Virus record (IMG/VR): IMGVR_UViG_2513237200_000006
Source of the DNA: a virus
Lineage: Duplodnaviria; Heunggongvirae; Uroviricota; Caudoviricetes
DNA length: 33,016 nt
Direction: 5' to 3' (one strand)
Every line of letters starts with the position of its first letter. Positions within the stretch are counted from its first letter, which is position 1. The notes below the pieces were generated by a model, which was not told the origin of the DNA, made no database searches, and was given only the letters and a program-made list of their open reading frames with translations. The translations under genes were made by a program, and so were the position numbers. Shown here piece after piece: positions 1 through 10,688 of this stretch.

Positions 1-318
1 ATGAAAAAGATAGCTGCTATATCATTAATTAGTATTTTTATTGTGTCTGGTTGTGCTGTGCATAATGATGAGACAAGTATCGGTAAATTTGGTCTTGCAT
101 ATAAAAGTAATATTCAGCGTAAACTCGATAACCAATACTACACCGAAGCCGAAGCTTCTTTAGCCAGGGGCAGAATATCTGGTGCAGAAAATATAGTAAA
201 AAATGATGCAGCCCATTTCTGTGTTACTCAGGGCAAAAAAATGCAGATAGTTGACCTGAAGACAGAAGGTGCAGGATTACATGGCGTCGCTCGTCTGACA
301 TTCAAATGTGGAGAGTGA
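1..318 (+). CDS. yegR: Host small protein (105 aa) with N-terminal signal/lipoprotein-like segment (…IFIVSGC…); yegR-like
   Basis: Complete 105-aa ORF outside the prophage boundary. Length and position relative to cyaR/yegQ match my recollection of the E. coli yegR-cyaR-yegQ neighbourhood. Not phage-like. Confidence 0.6.
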   Translation: MKKIAAISLISIFIVSGCAVHNDETSIGKFGLAYKSNIQRKLDNQYYTEAEASLARGRISGAENIVKNDAAHFCVTQGKKMQIVDLKTEGAGLHGVARLTFKCGE

Positions 319-475
319 GAATATTTTTTGGTAAGCGTCAAACATGCGCGTTCTGGTTGTGCTTAGCCGGAACCTGTGCGAGCACGATGCCGTTACGTGA
401 AAGGCATCGTGCTATGAAGGGAGATTCTATCGATGTGGTCAATGGAAGACGGTGACCAGGGATAGGGCTTATGCA

Positions 476-503
476 TAAAAAATAAGCCCGTGTAAGGGAG
501 ATT
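476..503. repeat. attL: attL core: 28-bp direct repeat TAAAAAATAAGCCCGTGTAAGGGAGATT
   Basis: Identical 28-mer recurs at 31483-31510. Matches the P2 27-bp att core as I recall it. Lies immediately downstream of int, as in P2 prophages. Confidence 0.85.
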
Positions 504-582
504 TAGGGTGTCACCTGTAGGGGCTTTCAACGGTACAATGCGGGTTTGAGCGGCATAAATTACCACTGAAAGCCCTTAAACG

Positions 583-1596
583 TTACTCTACTGTGGACAC
601 TGTGTGGACACTCTCGGCCTCAGTACCACCTCTTAGCGGATTAAGAGAAATGGCGTCCTGAAGGTACTCTGGCGCAAAATGAGCGTAAACCATAGTTTGC
701 TCAATCCGCGTGTGACCTAGTATCCGTTGTAGCGTGATAATACTTCCTCCATTAATCATGAAATGAGTGGCAAAGCTGTGCCTTAGTGCATGTGTGGCTT
801 GCCCCATTGGCAAATCTGGTTTTATTGCTTTCATTGTTCGTCTGAAGCGAGGGTAATCAGCATCAGGGAATAAAAAACCTCGTTTGTTATCCGCGATCAT
901 TTTGGCAACAGCCTCTGAGATCGGGACGGTGCGTGGTTTGTTTGTTTTCGTTTTAACAAACGTGACGCGGTTATGGATGATATTTTCTGCTTTCAAACGA
1001 GCTGCTTCTCCCCAACGTGCTCCTGTACTCAGGCAAAGAATCGCAATCTTTTTATTGTCGCCGTCAAGTGCTGCAAGCAGTAAGGCAATTTCTTCCTGTG
1101 TGAGATAGCCTGTTTCTGGTTTTTCCTCCTTAAGCCTCTTTGTCCCTCTGATAGGGTGCTCACCAAAGAATAACTCCGCTTCAATCAGGGCTGTAAACAT
1201 GCCGCTAATACATGTTAAATCACGATTGATACTCGAAGGTTTAATACCCTGACTTCTTCGGGTGGCGCAGTACTGGCTGATAAGGGATTTCGTGATTTGA
1301 AATGCGCATGGGTCATTCGTTATTTTTGTGAAGATTTCAATTTTTCCAAGATTAGATTTCCCATGCTCTTCGTGTTTACCCTTTAAATCCCACCAGATCT
1401 GTGTCAGTTCCGACAGACGTCGTTTGTCTGTTGGTTTTGATAGCCATTCTTTATTGTGGTGGTTGTACAACGTGTATTTTTCGAAAGCGACAGCTTCGCT
1501 TTTCTTATCAAACTTCCTACGGATGCGTTTTCCGTTACGTCCAGTAGGGCGGATGTCCACTTCATATCGACCATCATCGAGTTTTTTGATTGCCAT
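583..1596 (-). CDS. int: Tyrosine integrase (P2 Int-like, 337 aa)
   Basis: 337-aa ORF adjacent to attL. C-terminal catalytic region with …HALRHSFATH…LGH…VYAH… (R, H-x-x-R, Y motifs of tyrosine recombinases). Same length as P2 Int. GGAGGG RBS upstream of the ATG. Confidence 0.93.
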   Translation of the reverse strand: MAIKKLDDGRYEVDIRPTGRNGKRIRRKFDKKSEAVAFEKYTLYNHHNKEWLSKPTDKRRLSELTQIWWDLKGKHEEHGKSNLGKIEIFTKITNDPCAFQITKSLISQYCATRRSQGIKPSSINRDLTCISGMFTALIEAELFFGEHPIRGTKRLKEEKPETGYLTQEEIALLLAALDGDNKKIAILCLSTGARWGEAARLKAENIIHNRVTFVKTKTNKPRTVPISEAVAKMIADNKRGFLFPDADYPRFRRTMKAIKPDLPMGQATHALRHSFATHFMINGGSIITLQRILGHTRIEQTMVYAHFAPEYLQDAISLNPLRGGTEAESVHTVSTVE

Positions 1597-1711
1597 CAGA
1601 AAACCCTCCGAGTGGTACTTTTTTTTGCTACTACTAATCGCTTTTTTCGTGGTGGCTGAAATTTAGCCACCAATAGTAGGCACTTGTGATGAATATATTC
1701 ACGATAAATTG

Positions 1712-2011
1712 TTAACCAGTCTTTTGACCGGAGTGGGGCGACGTTGTTTCGTTTTGCCCAAAGTGTGCGAGAGCGGGCGCAATTTGCCCGGCTTCTGGAG
1801 CTACCTGATCAGTCATGAACCACAAAGTATATTTAGTAAATCTAGGATGTTGTAAGACCTTCATTATGGCTTCAACTCCAGCGTTTTTTGACCGGCTCTC
1901 ATAGCTCGAAAGTGAGCTGTAGGCTACACCAGTTAATTCACTGAATTCTTTACGGTTTAACCTTTCAGATTCACGGATTAGCTTCAACTTCTCCGAAACG
2001 TCTATTGACAT
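1712..2011 (-). CDS. C: Immunity repressor C (P2 C-like, 99 aa from the internal ATG at 2011)
   Basis: C-terminus …FTKYTLWFMTDQVAPEAGQIAPALAHFGQNETTSPHSGQKTG matches P2 C from memory. The ORF track's 123-aa form has a 24-aa N-terminal extension. The ATG at 2009-2011 has a GGAG RBS 6 nt upstream and gives the expected 99 aa. Transcribed divergently from cox. Confidence 0.85.
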   Translation of the reverse strand: MSIDVSEKLKLIRESERLNRKEFSELTGVAYSSLSSYESRSKNAGVEAIMKVLQHPRFTKYTLWFMTDQVAPEAGQIAPALAHFGQNETTSPHSGQKTG

Positions 2012-2132
2012 AATTACTCCGATTGCGTAATTTCTTGCTGATGGTGTGAAGCGTTGTACTTCTGGAGTTATCCTTTTAGGCAATAATTAGCCATTAGGAG
2101 CCATTAGAAGCACTAAGGGAGAATCGTAGCAG
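2012..2132. promoter_or_regulatory. Immunity switch region between C and cox: expected Pc/Pe promoters and C operator; contains tandem direct repeat AGCCATTAG (2089-2097, 2099-2107)
   Basis: Intergenic region between the divergently transcribed C and cox. Two 9-bp direct repeats spaced one helical turn apart lie just upstream of cox. By analogy with P2, C operators are direct repeats flanking Pe. Exact promoter hexamers not confidently assigned. Confidence 0.45.
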
Positions 2133-2408
2133 ATGAATAGACAGCTTGTAAGCGTGACTGATGCCGTGCCTTATCAGGAGTTTGCAAAACTCATTGGTAA
2201 AACTCCAAGAGCTGTAAGGGGCATGATTGAGAAAGGGAAATTACCAGTTATTGAGATTACTGACCCTCAGTCAGTATCGGGGCGTGCTGGTGAATATTGG
2301 GTATACCTTCCGGCATGGAATAACGGACTAAAACTGGCTTATGAAAGCCGTCCTAAAGAGATTCGTGACGGCTGGTTGATGTGGTTAGGTCTCGGTGAAC
2401 CTCGTTAA
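2133..2408 (+). CDS. cox: Cox (excisionase / early-operon repressor of Pc), 91 aa
   Basis: 91-aa ORF. Segment …GRAGEYWVYLPAWNNGLKLAYESRPKEIRDGWLMWLGLGEPR resembles P2 Cox from memory. First gene of the rightward early operon opposite C. Confidence 0.88.
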   Translation: MNRQLVSVTDAVPYQEFAKLIGKTPRAVRGMIEKGKLPVIEITDPQSVSGRAGEYWVYLPAWNNGLKLAYESRPKEIRDGWLMWLGLGEPR

Positions 2409-2418
2409 GGAGAACCGT

Positions 2419-2589
2419 ATGAATGAGCCTCGTTGTATTGCTCAGTTATTGCGTAACGAAAGCCCCAGGGCGATTGACTTCACCATCACCCACGGTAAGG
2501 GGCGTAAGGGAATCATTATCCGCACCAAAAAACAGAGTCCGTTAAAAAAGGCTCTGACCTTTCTGAAAAGCCGGAGGGTCTGGAAATGA
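2419..2589 (+). CDS. Small early-operon protein (P2 orf78-like), 56 aa from ATG 2419
   Basis: GGAG RBS at 2409-2412 precedes the internal ATG at 2419. The ORF track's start at 2395 would overlap cox. Position between cox and B as in P2. Confidence 0.5.
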   Translation: MNEPRCIAQLLRNESPRAIDFTITHGKGRKGIIIRTKKQSPLKKALTFLKSRRVWK

Positions 2590-3086
2590 CAGTGATGACG
2601 CTCAATCTCGTTGAAAAACAGCCTGCAGCTATGCGCCGGATAATTGGTAAGCATCTGGCCGTCCCTCGCTGGCAGGAGACATGCGATTATTATAATCAGA
2701 TGATGGAACGCGAACGGCTAACGGTTTGCTTCCATGCGCAGTTAAAACAGCGTCACGCAACGATGCGTTTTGAAGAAATGAACGACGTCGAACGTGAACG
2801 GCTGGTTTGTGCAATTGATGAATTGCGTGGGGCATTCTCAAAACGCCGTCGGGTTGGCGCAAGTGAGTATGCATATATTAGTTTTTTAACAGTCAGTCAG
2901 CGTCGTACTTTATTTATGCATGCCGGATTGACTGAAAAAGAATTCAACCAGCCATACTGGCGAATTAATGAAGAATCATGTTACTGGCGTGATGCTTTAT
3001 TCCGTGCATTACGTGAATTATTCAGCCTGTTTGAGTATGCACCGACAATTCTGACGTCGGTAAAACCAGAGCAATATCTGCATTAA
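2586..3086 (+). CDS. B: Replication protein B (helicase-loader-like), 166 aa
   Basis: 166 aa, the same length and position as P2 gpB. Start overlaps the stop of the preceding ORF (ATGA). Confidence 0.8.
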   Translation: MTVMTLNLVEKQPAAMRRIIGKHLAVPRWQETCDYYNQMMERERLTVCFHAQLKQRHATMRFEEMNDVERERLVCAIDELRGAFSKRRRVGASEYAYISFLTVSQRRTLFMHAGLTEKEFNQPYWRINEESCYWRDALFRALRELFSLFEYAPTILTSVKPEQYLH

Positions 3087-3149
3087 ATAATTAACCAGAG
3101 TTTTTAACGTACTTAATCGTGCGGGGCTTCTTTTTGCCTGGAGAAAGTC

Positions 3150-3374
3150 ATGCATACAGTTTCTGAAAATCAGTGCGGTAAATACGCATTACTGCTGCAA
3201 CAGGCCAGAACCGAAGCACAGGCCGACGCTGCAACGCGCTTTTCTTCTCATCTTGACGCCATGATTCGCCACATCACAAAGGCGGAGTTATCCCGCGTGG
3301 AGATAGTCGAGCTGCTCAGTCAGGAGTCGGAAAAATTTCACAATATCGGATTGTCTCGCGGGGAGGTGCTTTGA
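3150..3374 (+). CDS. Hypothetical early protein (P2 orf80-like), 74 aa
   Basis: ORF with GGAG RBS 5 nt upstream. Stop overlaps the next start (translational coupling). Confidence 0.55.
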
Positions 3375-3673
3375 TGTCCTGTTCTTATTCAGTTGTATTA
3401 CTGAATAACGCCTTAAAAATCGCCGTTATGGAAAATGGCGATTTGTCTCTTATTCAACTTTGTCTTGATAAAGAAAAACGCGACATAACTGAATCTGTAA
3501 TCGCGATTTATCAGAATGAATTAAACCTCCTGTCTGATGTGGTCAATTTACTTGTTAAACGCGCTGTATTCCACAAGCAAATTTCCTCAGTGGATGAACT
3601 GACAAAATTAACGACAGAACTTGCCAGTTATTGCGCTGATGTATCCAGGAAACTTAACGATAAAAGGAGCTGA
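3371..3673 (+). CDS. Hypothetical early protein (P2 orf81-like), 100 aa
   Basis: ORF coupled to its upstream and downstream neighbours. Noticeably more AT-rich than flanking genes. Confidence 0.5.
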
Positions 3674-3675
3674 TA

Positions 3676-3900
3676 ATGCCGGACAACGTAGATTTTATTC
3701 AGGAACAACAGGCTGAATTACTGGAGCGTCAGATTAACGCGGCAAGGGTAAAACATTGCGGTGTTTCTGCGCTGGTTTGCGAAGAGTGTGACGCACCAAT
3801 ACCTGCTGCCCGTCGTGCGGCTTATCCGTCAGCCACGCGTTGTGTTTCCTGTCAGTCAGTCTTTGAAGCAAAAAACAAACATTACCGGAGAACGGCATGA
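3676..3900 (+). CDS. TraR/DksA-family C4 zinc-finger protein (P2 orf82-like), 74 aa
   Basis: Two CxxC pairs (C-GVSALV-C-EE-C … C-VS-C) with spacing typical of the TraR/DksA zinc finger. AGGAG RBS upstream. Confidence 0.7.
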   Translation: MPDNVDFIQEQQAELLERQINAARVKHCGVSALVCEECDAPIPAARRAAYPSATRCVSCQSVFEAKNKHYRRTA

Positions 3901-4172
3901 GTATTCGTATTGAAATTGGCGAACGTTATGTCGTTACCAGTGACAGCTTTCAGTTTATTCTCCACGAGAAAAAGAGAGCGGAAAGCGGTAAAAACGCCGG
4001 TCAGGAATGGCTGGCGGTGGTTGGTTATTACCCGAAATTAAGCCAGCTCGTTTCCGGCCTGATGCATCACGATATTCTGACCGGAAGCGCAAAGTCTTTT
4101 GCTGATTTAAACGCGCAGGTTGAGCAACTCAGCAAGCGTTGTTCAGAGGCTTTTGGCTCATATGGCCGTTAA
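3897..4172 (+). CDS. Hypothetical early protein (P2 orf83-like), 91 aa
   Basis: ORF whose start overlaps the orf82 stop. Its 3' end overlaps the start of gene A. Confidence 0.5.
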   Translation: MSIRIEIGERYVVTSDSFQFILHEKKRAESGKNAGQEWLAVVGYYPKLSQLVSGLMHHDILTGSAKSFADLNAQVEQLSKRCSEAFGSYGR

Positions 4173-6438
4173 AGCCTCCGGGCGTTTTGTCCCTCCGTCA
4201 GCATTTGCCGCAGGCACCGGTAAGGCGTTTACCGGTGCTTATGCATGGAACGCGCCACGCGAGGCTGTCGGGCGCGAAAGACCCCTTACACGTGACGAGA
4301 TGCGTCAGGTGCAAGGTGTTTTATCCACGATTAACCGCCTGCCTTACTTTTTGCGCTCGCTGTTTACTTCACGCTATGACTACATCCGGCGCAATAAAAG
4401 CCCGGTACACGGGTTTTATTTCCTCACATCCACTTTTCAGCGTCGTTTATGGCCGCGCATTGAGCGTGTGAATCAGCGCCATGAAATGAACACCGACGCG
4501 TCGTTGCTGTTTCTGGCAGAGCGTGACCAGTATGCGCGTCTGCCGGGGATGAATGACAAGGAGCTGAAAAAGTTTGCCGCCCGTATCTCATCGCAGCTTT
4601 TCATGATGTATGAGGAACTCTGCGATGCCTGGGTGGATGCGCATGGCGAAAAAGAATCGCTGTTTACGGATGAGGCGCAGGCGCATCTGTATGGTCATGT
4701 TGCTGGCGCTGCACGTGCTTTCAATATTTCCCCGCTTTACTGGAAAAAATACCGTAAAGGACAGATGACCACGAGGCAGGCATATTCTGCCATTGCCCGT
4801 CTGTTTAACGATGAGTGGTGGACTCATCAGCTTAAAGGCCAGCGTATGCGCTGGCATGAAGCGTTACTGATAGCTGTCGGGGAGGTCAATAAAGACCGTT
4901 CTCCTTATGCCAGTAAACACGCCATTCGTGATGTGCGTGCGCGCCGCCAGGCAAATCTGGAATTTCTTAAATCGTGTGACCTTGAAAATAGGGAAACCGG
5001 CGAGCGCATCGACCTTATCAGTAAGGTGATGGGCAGTATTTCTAATCCTGAAATTCGCCGGATGGAGCTGATGAACACCATTGCCGGTATTGAGCGTTAC
5101 GCCGCTGCAGAGGGTGATGTGGGGATGTTTATCACGCTGACCGCGCCGTCAAAGTATCATCCGACACGTCAGGTAGGAAAAGGCGAAAGTAAAACCGTGC
5201 AGCTTAATCACGGCTGGAACGATGAGGCATTTAATCCAAAGGATGCGCAGCGTTATCTCTGCCGTATCTGGAGCCTGATGCGCACGGCATTCAAGGATAA
5301 TGATTTACAGGTCTACGGTTTGCGTGTCGTCGAGCCACACCACGACGGAACGCCGCACTGGCATATGATGCTTTTTTGTAATCCACGCCAGCGTAACCAG
5401 ATTATCGAAATCATGCGTCGCTATGCGCTCAAAGAGGATGGCGATGAAAGAGGAGCCGCGCGAAACCGTTTTCAGGCAAAACACCTTAACCGGGGCGGTG
5501 CTGCGGGATATATCGCGAAATACATTTCAAAAAACATCGACGGCTATGCACTGGATGGTCAGCTCGATAACGACACCGGCAGGCCGCTGAAAGACACTGC
5601 AGCGGCTGTTACCGCATGGGCGTCAACGTGGCGCATCCCGCAATTTAAAACGGTTGGCCTGCCGACAATGGGGGCTTACCGTGAACTACGCAAATTGCCT
5701 CGCGGCGTCAGCATTGCTGATGAGTTTGACGAGCGCGTCGAGGCTGCACGCGCCGCCGCAGACAGTGGTGATTTTGCGTTGTATATCAGCGCGCAGGGTG
5801 GGGCAAATGTCCCGCGCGATTGTCAGACTGTCAGGGTCGCCCGTAGCCCGTCGGATGACGTTAACGAGTACGAGGAAGAGGTCGAGAGAGTGGTCGGCAT
5901 TTACGCGCCGCATCTCGGCGCGCGTCATATTCATATCACCAGAACGACGAACTGGCGCATTGTGCCGAAAGTTCCGGTCGTCGAGCCTTTGACTTTAAAA
6001 AGCGGCATCGCCGCGCCTCGGAGTCCTGTCAATAACTGTGGAAAGCTCACCGGTGGTGATACTTCGTTACCGGCTCCCACACCTTCTGAGCACGCCGCAG
6101 CAGTGCTTAATCTGGTAGATGACGGTGTTATCGAATGGAGTGACCCGGAGGTCGTGATGGTGCTCAGGGGCGCATTAAAACACGGACTGAGAACACCAAA
6201 TCGTCAGCAAAGAAACGGAATCCCGTTAAAACCGCATGAAATTGCACCATCTGCCAGACTGACCAGGTCTGAACGATTGCAAATTACCCGTATCCGCGTT
6301 GACCTCGCTCAGAACGGTATCAGGCCGCAACGATGGGAGCTTGAGGCGCTGGCGCGTGGCGCGACCGTAAATTATGACGGGAAAAAATTCACGTATCCGG
6401 TTGCTGATGAGTGGCCGGGGTTCTCGTTACCCATTTGA
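4162..6438 (+). CDS. A: Replication initiation protein A (rolling-circle nicking endonuclease), about 758 aa from ATG 4162
   Basis: Large ORF. From the internal Met the N-terminus reads MAVKASGRFVPPSAFAAGTGK…, which matches P2 gpA as I recall it. Contains …EPHHDGTPHWHMMLF… (HUH-type metal-binding motif) and …AAGYIAKYISKNIDGY… (catalytic tyrosine region). Confidence 0.9.
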   Translation: MAVKASGRFVPPSAFAAGTGKAFTGAYAWNAPREAVGRERPLTRDEMRQVQGVLSTINRLPYFLRSLFTSRYDYIRRNKSPVHGFYFLTSTFQRRLWPRIERVNQRHEMNTDASLLFLAERDQYARLPGMNDKELKKFAARISSQLFMMYEELCDAWVDAHGEKESLFTDEAQAHLYGHVAGAARAFNISPLYWKKYRKGQMTTRQAYSAIARLFNDEWWTHQLKGQRMRWHEALLIAVGEVNKDRSPYASKHAIRDVRARRQANLEFLKSCDLENRETGERIDLISKVMGSISNPEIRRMELMNTIAGIERYAAAEGDVGMFITLTAPSKYHPTRQVGKGESKTVQLNHGWNDEAFNPKDAQRYLCRIWSLMRTAFKDNDLQVYGLRVVEPHHDGTPHWHMMLFCNPRQRNQIIEIMRRYALKEDGDERGAARNRFQAKHLNRGGAAGYIAKYISKNIDGYALDGQLDNDTGRPLKDTAAAVTAWASTWRIPQFKTVGLPTMGAYRELRKLPRGVSIADEFDERVEAARAAADSGDFALYISAQGGANVPRDCQTVRVARSPSDDVNEYEEEVERVVGIYAPHLGARHIHITRTTNWRIVPKVPVVEPLTLKSGIAAPRSPVNNCGKLTGGDTSLPAPTPSEHAAAVLNLVDDGVIEWSDPEVVMVLRGALKHGLRTPNRQQRNGIPLKPHEIAPSARLTRSERLQITRIRVDLAQNGIRPQRWELEALARGATVNYDGKKFTYPVADEWPGFSLPI

Positions 6439-6653
6439 GTAAAAACACAACGTGATTTGATATGGCATTGAATGGCTTATGCGGAGCAGTTATGGGGCAG
6501 CAGAAGGTCAATAGCATGCTGAATTAGAAGGCTAAATGCTATTGAGTGACTAGCATGTCGGTAAGGACAGCCGTTTGATCCGGGTCATAAAAGGCCATCC
6601 ATTTAGTCTAATAAAATCATTGCGGGTAACCTTATGTCGACGCATAATTCGTC

Positions 6654-6668
6654 TTGAGCGAAGTCTTG
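6654..6668. repeat. 15-bp direct repeat TTGAGCGAAGTCTTG (copy 1; copy 2 at 6918-6932)
   Basis: Exact 15-mer seen twice, about 264 bp apart, bracketing the terminator and the small ORF. Confidence 0.6.
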
Positions 6669-6698
6669 TCAGTCTTTCATCGTATTGATGATGGGCGC

Positions 6699-6728
6699 AA
6701 AAAAACCACCCTGGCAGGTGGTTTTTTT
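6699..6728. terminator. Bidirectional rho-independent terminator (A7-CCACC-CTGGCA-GGTGG-T7)
   Basis: Perfect hairpin flanked by a 7-A run on one side and a 7-T run on the other. Lies downstream of gene A and of the minus-strand small ORF. Confidence 0.7.
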
Positions 6729-6740
6729 GTTTGAAGCATA

Positions 6741-6854
6741 TTAAAGCATAATGCTGACATTGATATTACTGACGTTTACTGACAAACCACTTGGACTACC
6801 GTTTGGATAGCCAAAGAGGGCCAGAACGAGAATGCAGTAATAGCATTTCTTCAT
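6741..6854 (-). CDS. Possible small hydrophobic peptide (37 aa, MKKCYYCILVLALFGYPNG…)
   Basis: ATG at 6852-6854 (minus strand) preceded by a perfect AGGAGG with 5-nt spacing. Hydrophobic N-terminal segment. Followed by the bidirectional terminator. No homology asserted. Confidence 0.3.
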   Translation of the reverse strand: MKKCYYCILVLALFGYPNGSPSGLSVNVSNINVSIML

Positions 6855-6917
6855 ATTGCCTCCTGTAAGTAGAGGGCAACTTCCACCGGTATATGCGCTT
6901 CTTAGGTGGAATGACTT

Positions 6918-6932
6918 TTGAGCGAAGTCTTG
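6918..6932. repeat. 15-bp direct repeat TTGAGCGAAGTCTTG (copy 2)
   Basis: Exact match to 6654-6668. Confidence 0.6.
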
Positions 6933-7332
6933 CCCTGAAATAATGCTCTGTTTAAACGCAAAGTGATTTGGCATATCACCGAACAGAGAGCCGGAAAAAC
7001 ACAACATATAGTATGTCGTTGTTTCTAGACATACATTCTATGTTGTGTAACAAGGGCTTTGCATTAAACATGTTTGAGATTTTATTGATGTAGCTCAAAG
7101 TAAAAAACAGAGACTACGGATGATAAGGTCTTGAAAGCAATGTAAATTTTTTAAAGTTGCCAATTGCTTAAAAATGTACAGTTGCGGTATGGCGTACTTA
7201 AAAAGCTATGCATGCAACAAGTGAATGTTTTTGCATGCGCTGGGGATGTCCGTTCAGGCTGCGTGCGGTCAGGACTGGTGCGGATCCATAGTATCTATGC
7301 AACTGCATTAAAACCGCCCCGTGAAGCGGGCG

Positions 7333-7351
7333 GGCGAGGCGGGGAAAGCAC
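7333..7351 (+). other. cos: cos: 19-nt cohesive-end sequence GGCGAGGCGGGGAAAGCAC
   Basis: Exact match to the P2 cohesive-end 19-mer as I recall it. Lies between gene A and the portal gene Q, as expected for a P2 prophage. Confidence 0.75.
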
Positions 7352-7602
7352 CGCGCTCATGCAATGTGAAAATGTAATACCGATAGACTTACCGTTTCAG
7401 AGTTAGGATGTTCATCATATTGAAGTAACATACGAGAGATTCAGCAGAGCGCAACAAGTTTGAGAAAACAGTCCATATATCTTAACCTATTAGGACTGAC
7501 GGAAAATGAAGCACTATTCTTCGTGGTTATTTAGTATAGTATTGACTTTTCAACACGATCAATGGTTTGATCAGTTCGTATGTAATTGATTAAGGAAACT
7601 CA

Positions 7603-9036
7603 ATGAAAAAGCAAAGTGAAATTAACGTAAAAAAATTAGCATCATGGAGATTTTCATTTAAAAACATTGGGTGTATCTCTACAGGAGAAATTAATGCAAA
7701 ACCTTTAACGCTTTTATGCGGAAAAAATAATACTGGTAAAACATGGGTTATGTATGGGTTATATGGCTTCCTAAATATGCCATCACCATCTTTAAAATTG
7801 CCTCAAGTTGCAAATTTTGCCAAAACTCTTCGTGAAAATGGTAAGTTTGAATTAGATGTAATTGAGTGGATAAAAGATAATTTTACGTTAATCAAAAGAG
7901 AATTTAATAAAGATTCATCTTTAATGCTTAAAGATGTATTCAACACTAATGATAAGGAAATTTTTTCTAATTCAACATTTGACTGGGTTATAGATGAAGA
8001 ATCATTAGTATCAAGTGTTTATGAAAAAAAATTGGATGTTAGCCTCGTCATAGGAACCGGCAAAAAAGAAGTAATGCTATTATCCAAAGATAAAAATAGC
8101 AATATCATACAAATGACGCTGCTAGATTCTGCTTTTCCCAGAATTGATGGGTTTATAAACTTAACTCTAAGTCAGTTATTAAAGATAGAGTATGATGAAA
8201 GCCCAGCATTTTTAATTCCCGCAGAAAGAAATGGCTTGCACCTTTTTTTCAATGAATTAAGTTCCAGAAGAACTGCGTTATTGCACCACGCCTCAAAAGA
8301 ACAGTTCGATCTGAACTCACTATTAATGGATGTAATGAAGTCTAAGTATTCTGCTCCTATAGCAAATTACATAGACTGGCTTAATGAAATTAAGGTTAAT
8401 AGGAAAAATAAAAATGGCCAATTTCATAAATTAGCAGAAGAAGTAAAAAAAATAATTTCAGGAAAATATTCAGTTGATCCTGAAGGGCAGATTTATTTTT
8501 CAACGTATAAGAAAGGTAAGACACCTGCAAGTAAAATTGAACTTCATTTATCGTCATCCACTGTTAAAAGTTTGTTTGGCCTGTGGTTTTATTTAGAGCA
8601 CCAAGCAAAAACTGGTGATATTTTAATGATTGACGAACCCGAGTTAAATTTACACCCGTCAAATCAGCGAGTAATTGCAAGATTTTTAGCAAAGCTAGTT
8701 AACTCTGGTATTCGGGTTATTGTTAGTACTCACAGTGATTATTTTGTGAAAGAAATCAATAGCTTGATTATGTTGCATGGCGTTTCTGAAAATATGATTG
8801 AAAAACGAAACGCTATCATGCAGAAGCAAGGGATTAGCATCGACTCAATTTTAGACTCTAACCTAGTCGCTGCGTATTTATTTGATAATGGCTCAGTCAA
8901 TGAAATGCAGAAGTCAAATGAAGGGATTAATGCTGTAACTTTTGATGAAGTAATTAATGCCATTAATGACGATAATGATGAAATATATTACTCCTTGGTG
9001 GAGAATGCCTCTGATAGTGAGGATGTAGATGAGTAA
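7603..9036 (+). CDS. Cargo protein 1: ABC/OLD-family (AAA_21-like) ATPase without a nuclease domain, 477 aa
   Basis: Walker A LLCGKNNTGKT near the N-terminus; signature-like HLSSST; Walker B/D-loop ILMIDEPELNLHP; H-loop VSTHSDYF; long insert between Walker A and B; acidic C-terminal tail. Codon usage is strongly AT-rich compared with the phage backbone. Confidence 0.8.
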   Translation: MKKQSEINVKKLASWRFSFKNIGCISTGEINAKPLTLLCGKNNTGKTWVMYGLYGFLNMPSPSLKLPQVANFAKTLRENGKFELDVIEWIKDNFTLIKREFNKDSSLMLKDVFNTNDKEIFSNSTFDWVIDEESLVSSVYEKKLDVSLVIGTGKKEVMLLSKDKNSNIIQMTLLDSAFPRIDGFINLTLSQLLKIEYDESPAFLIPAERNGLHLFFNELSSRRTALLHHASKEQFDLNSLLMDVMKSKYSAPIANYIDWLNEIKVNRKNKNGQFHKLAEEVKKIISGKYSVDPEGQIYFSTYKKGKTPASKIELHLSSSTVKSLFGLWFYLEHQAKTGDILMIDEPELNLHPSNQRVIARFLAKLVNSGIRVIVSTHSDYFVKEINSLIMLHGVSENMIEKRNAIMQKQGISIDSILDSNLVAAYLFDNGSVNEMQKSNEGINAVTFDEVINAINDDNDEIYYSLVENASDSEDVDE

Positions 9037-9601
9037 TATTATCAATGTAATACAAAGTTGCATCGATCCTACATTTCAATTAATGCGAGAGCAGGAATGC
9101 TGGGTTGTATGCGAAGAGAACCCAGGTGCTACAAATAAAAAATTACTGGTAAACGGAAATGGTATCTATGGATTTTCGCTAGATTCTAATAGTATTTCTA
9201 AACCAGTCTGGAAATTTTTAAAATCTTCTGCTTTACCAGGAGTATGCTCTGTTTGTGATGGAATTTTTGTTACGTCGCACAAAGACGTAGATTATTTTAT
9301 CGTAATAGATCTCAAATCTTATAACTCAAATGGTGCGGCTAAACAGGTAGTTACTGGCATTCATTTTTGTAAGTGGCTATATTCTGTATTGAATTTACAT
9401 GGGCATTTGTCAAGAAAAGTGGATTACATTGGTGTAATAAGTAAATTATCGAGGAGGCAGCAATCAGCTAAAAAAACAACTGTTCGCTCGCAATTGCCTC
9501 CTCCTGAAATTTGCTATAATTATCCTGTGTTTACATTGGAAAACTATAACAGATTATCACTGGCGCATATTTGTGACTTTATATACAATATGAAAAAATA
9601 A
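9029..9601 (+). CDS. Cargo protein 2: 190-aa protein of unknown function, possible PD-(D/E)xK-like or TOPRIM-like nuclease
   Basis: Start ATG overlaps the stop of the ATPase gene (ATGAGTAA), indicating translational coupling. Contains E-rich N-terminal strand (WVVCEEN), D in …VCDGIFV… followed 17 residues later by IVIDLK (a (D/E)xK-like motif), and a DVD triplet. The fold assignment is inference only. Confidence 0.6.
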   Translation: MSNIINVIQSCIDPTFQLMREQECWVVCEENPGATNKKLLVNGNGIYGFSLDSNSISKPVWKFLKSSALPGVCSVCDGIFVTSHKDVDYFIVIDLKSYNSNGAAKQVVTGIHFCKWLYSVLNLHGHLSRKVDYIGVISKLSRRQQSAKKTTVRSQLPPPEICYNYPVFTLENYNRLSLAHICDFIYNMKK

Positions 9602-9659
9602 AATCCTGCAATTATTAGCCCCGGCAAATGCTAGGGCTAATTATCATCTAAATATTGGG

Positions 9660-10688
9660 TTAATTATCGTCTAAAGAGTAATTTTTGAATTGAATAACTT
9701 CGGCGCTGAGCCAGCCGTTTATCTCGCGGATCCTGTCCTGTAGCGGGATAAGCTCATTGCGGACAAAGACCTTTGCCACTTTCTCAATATCACCCAGTGA
9801 CCCGACGTTCTCCGGCTTGCCGCCCATCAACTGAAAGGGGATGCGGTGCGCGTCCAGCAGGTCAGCGGCGCTGGCTTTTTTGATATTAAAAAAATCGTCC
9901 TTCGTCGCCACTTCACTGAGGGGGATAATTTTAATGCCGTCGGCTTTCCCCTGTGGGGCATAGAGAAACAGGTTTTTAAAGTTGTTGCGGCCTTTCGACT
10001 TGACCATGTTTTCGCGAAGCATTTCGATATCGTTGCGATCCTGCACGGCATCAGTGACGTACATGATGTATCCGGCATGAGCGCCGTTTTCGTAATACTT
10101 GCGGCGGAACAGCGTGGCTGACTCATTCAGCCAGGCAGAGTTAAGGGCGCTGAGATATTCCGGCAGGCCGTACAGCTCCTGATTGATATCCGGCTCCAGC
10201 AGGTGAAACACGGAGCCGGGCGCGAAGGCTGTCGGCTCGTTGAAGGACGGCACCCACCAGTAAACATCCTCCTCCACGCCACGGCGGGTATATTTTGCCG
10301 GCGAGGTTTCCAGCCTGATAACCTTACCGGTGGTGCTGTAACGCTTTTCCAGAAACGCATTACCGAACACCAGAAAATCCAGCACAAAACGGCTGAAATC
10401 CTGCTGGGAAAGCCACGGGTGCGGGATAAACGTTGAAGCCAGAATATTACGTTTGACGTAAATCGGTGAGCTGTGATGCACGGCAGCACGCAGGCTTTTC
10501 GCCAGACCGGTAAAGCTGACCGGTGGCTCATACCATCTGCCGTTACTGATGCACTCGACGTAATCCAGAATGTCACGCCGGTCGAGTACCGGCACCGGCT
10601 CACCAAAGGTGAATGCCTCCATTTTCGGGGCGCTGGCGGTCATTTTTTTTGCCGCAGGTTGCGGTGTTTTCCCTTTTTTCTTGCTCAT
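9660..10688 (-). CDS. Q: Portal protein Q, 342 aa
   Basis: Leftward gene paired with P, as in P2. Length close to P2 gpQ. Start overlaps the P stop by 1 nt. Confidence 0.88.
   Translation of the reverse strand: MSKKKGKTPQPAAKKMTASAPKMEAFTFGEPVPVLDRRDILDYVECISNGRWYEPPVSFTGLAKSLRAAVHHSSPIYVKRNILASTFIPHPWLSQQDFSRFVLDFLVFGNAFLEKRYSTTGKVIRLETSPAKYTRRGVEEDVYWWVPSFNEPTAFAPGSVFHLLEPDINQELYGLPEYLSALNSAWLNESATLFRRKYYENGAHAGYIMYVTDAVQDRNDIEMLRENMVKSKGRNNFKNLFLYAPQGKADGIKIIPLSEVATKDDFFNIKKASAADLLDAHRIPFQLMGGKPENVGSLGDIEKVAKVFVRNELIPLQDRIREINGWLSAEVIQFKNYSLDDN

Follow-up and report, generated by a model that had tools for sequence, protein, structure and literature searches.

The window analysed here, a stretch of 33,016 nucleotides (IMG/VR record IMGVR_UViG_2513237200_000006), is a P2-like prophage of E. 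coli W, a second one besides the classical phage of this strain, Wphi, which is a separate prophage and carries its cargo on the A side of the cohesive-end site, cos. In the window, the cargo lies between cos and the portal gene Q, which raises the question of whether this placement is a noteworthy departure from the P2 arrangement, as a preliminary description of the same DNA had implied, or an ordinary use of a known site. In P2 itself, tin and old are located between A and cosR and all cargo is on the A side, unlike in the window, such that the preliminary description was right to place the two cargos on opposite sides of cos. The tin/old variable region was reportedly described by Odegrip et al. 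in 2006 as lying at the same P2-like locus. The features of the window considered in our analysis are as follows:

4162 to 6438, plus strand: replication endonuclease gene A, left boundary of the hotspot (Pfam Phage_GPA, 3e-124; RefSeq WP_000268602, E. coli W)
6439 to 7298: interval between A and cos without an annotated gene (RefSeq shows no CDS)
7299 to 7358, plus strand: conserved cos core, comprising 34 bp, the 19-nt cohesive-end sequence and 7 bp (conserved across 76 cos junctions, among the matches listed)
7333 to 7351, plus strand: 19-nt cohesive-end sequence (an exact match to cosL, positions 1 to 19 of P2; 0 chance matches expected)
7359 to 7541, plus strand: AT-rich leader, seen only in the cassette as found in E. 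coli (E. coli UTAK-5 has a version of about 87% identity)
7542 to 7571, plus strand: putative cassette promoter (-35 TTGACT at 7542-7547, 18-nt spacer, -10-like TTTGAT at 7566-7571)
7603 to 9036, plus strand: PD-T4-4 A, a 477-aa ABC-type P-loop ATPase (PADLOC PD-T4-4_A, 2.1e-112 over residues 16-465)
9029 to 9601, plus strand: PD-T4-4 B, its 190-aa partner, a predicted PD-(D/E)XK nuclease (PADLOC PD-T4-4_B, 1.2e-15 over residues 2-155)
9615 to 9640: hairpin between the convergent stops of PD-T4-4 B and Q (-17.3 kcal/mol on the plus strand and -16.4 kcal/mol on the minus strand, z about -2)
9660 to 9707, minus strand: AT-rich sequence that takes the place of the final 16 codons of Q (DNA similarity to P2 returns only at 9708)
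9660 to 10688, minus strand: portal gene Q, right boundary of the hotspot (Pfam Phage_portal, 342 aa; RefSeq WP_000038162)

The cohesive-end sequence, GGCGAGGCGGGGAAAGCAC, occurs once in the window, with 0 mismatches and exactly where the preliminary description had located it, and in a chance control 0 of 100 shuffles matched it, even with 2 mismatches allowed. In a comparison of cos junctions from 76 P2-like loci that represent different enterobacterial species (among the matches listed), conservation around this sequence stops after TGCGCGC, and the same block is also present in P4. The core is asymmetric, extending about 34 bp towards A but just 7 bp towards Q, and on sequence grounds it is the counterpart of the 55-bp core published for P2 and P4 (Ziermann and Calendar 1990, cited in PMC5694545 and PMC2231350). 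On the polarity of packaging in P2 and on how far a functional cos extends, the literature we searched gave only the size of this core. The preliminary description proposed that the cargo is the first DNA to enter or leave the capsid at one genome end, which may be so; what the sequence itself indicates is a position at the left end of the chromosome as packaged. An 80-aa open reading frame spanning cos (7164-7406) was considered as a gene and dropped, having no family match and being unannotated in E. coli W.

The 19-mer might in principle be a relic in a defective prophage, in which case where the cargo lies with respect to cos would have no meaning for packaging. What lends this some weight is the right flank, where the window reads CGCGCTC and P2 reads TGCGCGC, matching at 5 of 7 positions with two substitutions; however, P4 has one of these substitutions too, and the other affects a site that is variable in other species, in which positions +6 and +7 both vary. 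An indel in this flank (loss of TG) was also considered, and was rejected for the ungapped match because P4 shares the C at +1 and an 87%-identical allele of the cassette reads TGCGCGC followed by ATGCAA. The rest of the core is intact, with a 19-mer identical to that of P2 and P4 and a 34-bp left flank near-identical to both, while the 26-kb RefSeq stretch from int to tail protein I has one flagged pseudogene, the tail protein CDS where the stretch is cut off, and near-identical copies are found in 15 genomes. Taking these observations into account, we consider a relic cos to be improbable.

Between cos and Q, the window has 2,308 bp (7352-9659) compared to 167 bp in the P2 reference (cosL at 1-19, terminator tQ at 160-181, Q stop at 187), in good agreement with the preliminary description, which gave about 2.3 kb of AT-rich leader and two-gene operon for the window and about 150 bp for P2. 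It had also noted that similarity to P2 stops a few bases after the 19-mer; we find that it ends 7 bp past it and, from the alignment to P2, that it returns at 9708, 16 codons inside a Q gene whose product is 98% identical to that of P2 (tblastn). Despite the replacement of this DNA, the end of the Q protein stays similar (...INGWLSAEVIQFKNYSLDDN in the window and ...INGWLGQEVIRFKNYSLDTDND in P2). The GC content of the cos-to-Q interval is 0.30-0.35, against about 0.55, and over 7450-9700 it is 0.29-0.36, in comparison to 0.51-0.61 in the flanking phage genes, which supports the earlier view of the cargo as foreign. The AT-rich Q end travels with the cassette, as the 87%-identical allele, located in the equivalent slot of a P2-like prophage of E. 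coli UTAK-5, has the same end.

On the other side of the core, the A-to-cos interval is about 894-897 bp long, and a module within it (6439-7209) is about 86% identical to DNA beside gene A in four P2-like contigs (L044, L052, L056 and L068; blastn). An 88-aa open reading frame in this interval (6741-7007, minus strand) has no Pfam or PADLOC match, and an Rfam scan of 6400-9700 returned no family near its gathering score.

The two cargo genes, which overlap by 8 bp (9029 and 9036), resemble the PD-T4-4 system of Vassallo et al. 2022 in pairing a P-loop/ABC-type ATPase with a small predicted PD-(D/E)XK nuclease, the combination under which PD-T4-4 is classed (10.1101/2025.07.10.664194; PMC10952713). 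PD-T4-4 A matches Pfam AAA_15 (6e-26) and AAA_21 (8e-17), and has a Walker A motif, GKNNTGKT, at 7720-7743 and a Walker B motif, ILMIDE, at 8620-8637. PD-T4-4 B aligns to its profile over 154 residues and carries IDLK at residues 93-96; as it has no Pfam match, the predicted nuclease fold is based on the PADLOC profile and this short motif. The original PD-T4-4 comes from an ICE-like element and not from a P2 prophage (PMC9519451), making a source outside P2 possible for the first acquisition.

The operon may bring its own expression signals. An AAGGA ribosome-binding site precedes the ATG at 7603, and the TTGACT/TTTGAT pair of the putative promoter is kept in all divergent PD-T4-4 cassettes (L091-L096), where it directly follows TGCGCGCT with no leader between. 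The leader of the window is missing from these homologous cassettes and unmatched in the other surveyed loci. A consensus promoter scan, which demands an A at the second position of the -10 element, did not report 7542-7571. Downstream, the hairpin at 9615-9640 is probably a bidirectional terminator that replaces the tQ of P2, and analogous hairpins are found at the equivalent place in L091-L096 and L178. A consensus terminator scan did not report it, its sole match in the cos region being a GC hairpin inside the cos core.

The cassette recurs beyond E. coli W. Homologues in 5 divergent P2-like contigs, whose Q is 78-81% identical, share 79-82% (PD-T4-4 A) and 67-71% (PD-T4-4 B) amino acid identity, keep the order cos, A, B, Q, and have the cassette starting directly after TGCGCGCT. 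A sensitive-mode search of 50,697 phage records with the cargo gave zero matches, such that no sequenced phage isolate in that set has the cassette.

The preliminary description had asked whether 2 kb or more between cos and Q might be ancestral. We compared 160 related loci, taken from the best 80 hits of each scan, the samples being 79 close relatives and 76 prophages that represent different enterobacterial species; the E. coli counts are per record and not per prophage. A spacer of at most 250 bp was found in 75/79 close relatives and 45/76 species representatives (among the matches listed), and this short form is the modal and probably the ancestral state. More than 700 bp separates cos and Q in 4/79 and 28/76 (37%), respectively, among the matches listed, and the short spacer is missing in 98 of 1,637 matching E. 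coli records (about 6%), where all 3 of the records inspected have cargo in the slot. Other occupants of the slot, sharing the left junction of the window, are retron Ec48, an NsnA-like protein with a nucleotidyltransferase, a PDC-S02-like protein and, in other species, Lamassu, AbiL, Avs5, PDC-S49, PDC-M18 and Olokun (PADLOC). Among 109 phage records, the only case is pro147, with retron Ec48 in this slot.

All cargo junctions in these loci start 7-8 bp past the 19-mer, at the edge of the cos core, while the right junctions vary, falling within the spacer, at tQ or inside Q; in one contig, a 90-bp deletion begins at the shared left junction point. Since all junctions lie within a base or two of one position near the cut site, and unrelated cargos use it in common, this constant +7/+8 junction could be the mechanistic scar of illegitimate joining at terminase-cut cohesive ends. 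Such a scar would, however, be displaced from the nick positions, as 7-8 bp separate the junction from the 19-nt overhang; conservation ends at the identical boundary in cargo-free prophages, as selection alone predicts; and both the diverged piece of Q and the presence of the same cassette in the same slot of distant P2-like phages fit homologous exchange. An origin by end joining thus seems rather unlikely, a shade more so than a relic cos.

The interval from gpA to gpQ, with cos inside it, is a published P2 defence hotspot (PMC9122126, Rousset et al. 2022; PMC9519451, Vassallo et al. 2022), named "P2 defence hotspot #1" in the latter (PMC9519451). The window has the same flanking genes, with cos within and variable low-GC defence content: its cargo lies between A and Q, adjoins the cos core from 7359 on, and occupies a position whose content varies and includes defence systems. 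The exact E. coli W pair is listed in Table S5A of Rousset et al., a table of 18,150 gpA-gpQ loci (NC_017635, WP_000744812 and WP_001350078; PMC9122126), with the labels AAA_15/AAA_15/AAA_21 and hypothetical. In the portions of both papers relevant here, the locus is defined by its flanking genes and cargo on the A side is not split from cargo on the Q side (PMC9122126; PMC9519451).

The Q-side position has itself been described. A 2017 paper (Askora et al., PMC5694545) describes the site flanked by cosL and the Q homologue as a hotspot at which foreign genes are found, with reference to Dodd and Egan 1996 and Nakayama et al. 1999. In phiCTX (NC_003278), cosL is annotated at 1-21, ctx at 362-1222, terminators at 1267-1329 and Q at 1417-2469, and in the Ralstonia phage phiRSY1, ORF1-4 occupy the slot between cosL and the portal gene (PMC5694545). 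As in the window, the foreign genes of these phages come right after the left cohesive end, point away from cos and converge with Q, and have a terminator behind them, which in the window is a probable one, although their product is a toxin or a Vgr-like protein and not a defence system, and these phages belong to other genera and have other cos sequences.

A further parallel is provided by P4, whose gop/beta/cII hotspot begins 7 bp past the same 19-mer and on the same side as the window cargo (junctions GCAC CGCGCGC / aaaccg... in P4 and GCAC CGCGCTC / atgcaa... in the window). The P4 hotspot, which extends from cos to int, likewise carries diverse defence systems, but it belongs to a satellite without a portal gene, and its far boundary is int or cII and not Q. 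The preliminary description had stressed that the cargo lies beside the terminase recognition region. It does abut the conserved cos core, but the concern attached to this is weakened because the core extends only 7 bp on the Q side and because P4 cargo also lies on the Q side.

An exceptional, lineage-specific move that put the cargo on the "wrong" side of cos and had special effects on packaging or injection would be in line with its minority status among close E. coli-type relatives (4/79, among the matches listed), with pro147 as the lone similar case among 109 phage records and with an A-to-cos interval (897 bp) that is the shortest among the close relatives listed, but it is very unlikely, the least probable of the readings we weighed, given that the slot is filled in 37% of the different-species prophages (among the matches listed) and in phiCTX and the phiRSY1 group, that the position is named as a hotspot (PMC5694545) and the locus already catalogued (PMC9122126), and that in P4, which is packaged by the same terminase, the cargo is always on the Q-equivalent side.

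The arrangement in the window is, therefore, an ordinary and already described use of a known P2-family cargo slot, and the implication of a noteworthy departure does not hold, with the hotspot published, the gene pair listed, and ctx of phiCTX, Ec48 of pro147 and 28/76 prophages (among the matches listed) as precedents. Very probably, 7359-9707 is a mobile defence cassette, housed in the Q-side half of the already known gpA-gpQ hotspot near cos and composed of the leader, a promoter that would be its own, the PD-T4-4 NTPase and nuclease genes, a likely terminator hairpin and the co-transferred AT-rich 3' end of Q. The cos core of about 60 bp, needed for packaging, would split the hotspot in two, leaving as dispensable and exchangeable the stretch from 7-8 bp past the 19-mer to slightly inside the end of Q. 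The cassette would most likely have arrived by homologous recombination with a P2-like genome already holding it in the same slot, through crossovers inside Q and in the cos core. As part of the lysogen, it would presumably act as an expressed moron (lysogenic conversion), guarding host and prophage against other phages, and in the virion it would be just the leftmost 2.3 kb of the chromosome.

The locus thus adds one more documented prophage-borne defence system to a hotspot already mined by several groups. Defining this hotspot by gpA and gpQ alone merges two physically separate slots, of which the Q-side one is filled in about 5-6% of E. coli-type relatives and in about one-third of the species representatives sampled (among the matches listed). 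The sharp 7-8 bp boundary could serve in automatic delimiting of cargo, in the design of minimal cos cassettes and in questions of P2-P4 exchange. More tentatively, and as a possibility we would not favor at present, the cos-proximal hotspot may really be two slots split by the cos core, with the Q-side slot as the positional homologue of the P4 hotspot, since both begin 7 bp past the 19-mer, and with helper and satellite swapping cassettes via the shared core. If so, the invariant +7 boundary would mark the minimal right-hand limit of cos in vivo, and the side of cos on which a cassette lies might affect the timing of its expression after injection, if that end enters first.

The 19-nt P2 cohesive-end sequence, GGCGAGGCGGGGAAAGCAC, has a single exact match in the whole window, at 7333-7351 (0 mismatches, with none expected by chance), and lies 2,308 bp from the stop codon of the portal gene Q, compared with 167 bp in P2. 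In the P2 reference, cosL occupies 1-19, the terminator tQ 160-181, and the Q stop falls at 187, with tin and old across cos from Q, between the replication endonuclease gene A and cosR. The A-to-cos interval of the window comprises only 894 bp without a gene annotated in RefSeq, and GC content over 7450-9700 is 0.29-0.36 vs ~0.55 in the phage genes. The features discussed here are as follows.

Ends at 6438, upstream of cos: gene A, replication endonuclease (Phage_GPA, 3e-124)
7333-7351: cohesive-end sequence
7542-7571: putative promoter, -35 TTGACT and -10-like TTTGAT
7603-9036: PD-T4-4 A open reading frame, 477 aa (PADLOC PD-T4-4_A, 2.1e-112, nearly full length)
9029-9601: PD-T4-4 B open reading frame, 190 aa (PADLOC PD-T4-4_B, 1.2e-15)
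9615-9640: putative terminator hairpin, 3' of the operon
9660-10688, minus strand, downstream of cos: portal gene Q

The preliminary description had placed ~2.3 kb of foreign DNA (an AT-rich leader and a two-gene operon) between cos and Q, on the opposite side of cos from the P2 accessory genes, with only short elements on the A side and with similarity to P2 ending a few bases after the 19-mer. All of these observations that the sequence allows one to check are confirmed. The interpretation attached to them finds partial support, being correct as to the position of the cargo and not as to its implied novelty; cargo between cos and Q is an arrangement that is already known. We note that the 770 bp directly 3' of gene A (6439-7209), which lack a RefSeq gene, are ~86% identical to DNA beside gene A in four other P2-like contigs (L044, L052, L056, and L068). 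Within this region, an 88-aa open reading frame (6741-7007, minus strand) matches nothing in Pfam or PADLOC, and Rfam matches, at 6644-6762, all fell below threshold; the region may represent a conserved module, either non-coding or holding a small gene.

To define the breakpoints, we aligned cos junctions from P2, Wphi, pro147, the best 80 IMG/VR contigs, and the best 80 prophages of different species. Conservation spans the 19-mer together with ~34 bp toward gene A and the heptamer TGCGCGC toward Q, where it ends whether or not cargo is present. This block matches the 55-bp P2/P4 core of Ziermann and Calendar 1990, as cited in PMC5694545 and PMC2231350. The 7 bp after the 19-mer read CGCGCTC in the window and CGCGCGC in P4. 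Because TGCGCGC in the homologous cassette of E. coli strain UTAK-5 (87% identical) leads into the ATGCAA... also seen in the window, we place the cassette start at +8. Insertion at a point generated by cos cleavage is considered less likely, since the junction is not within the overhang and also marks where conservation ends in cargo-free prophages.

The right boundary is variable, falling in the spacer in one contig and at tQ in another, while in the window and one further locus the last 10-16 codons of Q are replaced. In the window, similarity to P2 restarts at 9708, and the replaced Q end (9660-9707) uses AT-rich codons for near-identical residues, giving a protein of 342 aa vs 344 in P2. 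As this AT-rich end recurs in the UTAK-5 allele, the cassette appears to travel with a piece of diverged Q. The exchangeable region includes the last 10-16 portal-gene codons (window 9660-9707; L073/L179). Separately, one contig (L076, IMGVR_UViG_3300045988_101337) has a ~90-bp spacer deletion running from exactly after TGCGCGCT to before tQ, which suggests that the P2 cos-to-Q spacer is mostly dispensable.

We therefore favor homologous exchange between the cos core and Q, which would yield a sharp left boundary, a ragged right boundary, and a co-transferred Q end. Selection for packaging would hold the cos core, while the ~130-bp spacer, tQ, and even the last Q codons would be replaceable, such that cassettes could pass between P2-like genomes by homologous recombination, with one crossover within or beside the cos core and the other in Q.

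The two cassette reading frames overlap. Protein A matches Pfam AAA_15 and AAA_21, and both of its Walker motifs are clear (A, GKNNTGKT; B, ILMIDE); protein B contains an IDLK motif and matches no Pfam family. PD-T4-4 is described as pairing a P-loop NTPase with a PD-(D/E)XK nuclease (10.1101/2025.07.10.664194; PMC10952713). Since generic promoter and terminator scans call neither the 7542-7571 pair nor the 9615-9640 hairpin, both are considered putative; the TTGACT/TTTGAT pair and an analogous hairpin recur at the same position in divergent cassette copies. The cassette's own promoter would presumably drive it in the lysogen, where it presumably defends against other phages. The ~185-bp leader between the cos core and this promoter (7359-7541) is found only in E. 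coli PD-T4-4 cassettes (87% identical in UTAK-5), and is missing from the homologous cassettes of P2-like contigs that are more distant, in which TGCGCGCT leads directly into the promoter.

The prophage adjoins yegR. E. coli W and its derivatives share its cargo at 100% identity; altogether, 15 complete genomes carry this cargo at ≥99.8% identity and 3 more at 87%. Two ~4.83-Mb genomes labeled 'DH5alpha' (NZ_CP026085.1 and NZ_CM135829.1) carry it at 100% identity, the same match as in E. coli W derivatives such as LY180; the two strains may be mislabeled. The classical P2-like phage known from E. coli W, Wphi, is ruled out as the source, as its spacer from cos to Q is of the canonical short type and its cargo lies on the side of gene A. 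A sensitive search of 50,697 phage records found the cassette in none. PD-T4-4 homologues (A 79-82% identical) are present in 5 further, more distant P2-like contigs, all in the order cos-[A,B]-Q. In another contig (L095, IMGVR_UViG_2574179906_000003), a homologue at 910-2884 (A 81% identical) has no cos, Q, or A detectable within 8.3 kb, and the cassette may therefore sit in a different context also.

Among the best 80 IMG/VR matches, 75 of the 79 contigs with Q at least 97% identical have a short spacer (median 169 bp), and the other 4 carry 1.4-2.3 kb of cargo. In 76 P2-like prophages from the best 80 matches of different species, the cos-to-Q distance is ≤250 bp in 45, 250-700 bp in 3, and >700 bp in 28 (37%). 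When 5,426 complete E. coli genomes were queried with the P2 cos-spacer-Q junction, 98 of the 1,637 matching records (6%, counted per record) lacked any canonical-spacer copy, and all 3 of those inspected have cargo after TGCGCGC(T). The Q-side cargos of relatives, which share this left junction, are varied and defence-like: retron Ec48 (phage pro147 and E. coli E189), an NsnA-like GmrSD_N protein with a nucleotidyltransferase, a PDC-S02-like pair, and, in other genera, Lamassu, AbiL, Avs5, PDC-S49, PDC-M18, and Olokun. In pro147 and E189, reverse-transcriptase systems flank cos, the A side encoding an RNA-directed DNA polymerase of 515 aa and the Q side carrying the retron. A degraded P2-like prophage at ogrK/yegQ in E. 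coli GF4 (1-6300) keeps A, cos, a truncated portal gene, and ~940 bp of cargo on the Q side, showing that cargo in the hotspot can persist beyond the phage itself.

Rousset et al. 2022 described a defence hotspot in the cos-proximal interval between gpA and gpQ, with exactly this E. coli W protein pair in a supplementary table (PMC9122126); the locus is termed 'P2 defence hotspot #1' by Vassallo et al. 2022 (PMC9519451), and Askora et al., citing work from 1996 and 1999, describe the position between cosL and the Q homologue as a foreign-gene hotspot (PMC5694545). The cargo of phiCTX, ctx, likewise lies between cosL and Q, where it has a promoter and terminators of its own. P4 shares its packaging terminase with P2, and its gop/beta/cII defence hotspot starts 7 bp after the 19-mer on the same side. 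The layout of the window thus uses a known slot in the manner of P4 or phiCTX and is no departure from the family. We found no usable statement in the literature examined on which P2 DNA end enters the capsid or cell first. In the portions of the gpA-gpQ hotspot literature available to us, no text separating A-side from Q-side cargo was found, and treating the hotspot as two slots, with the boundary constant at +7, is thus an addition, albeit a small descriptive one rather than a discovery.
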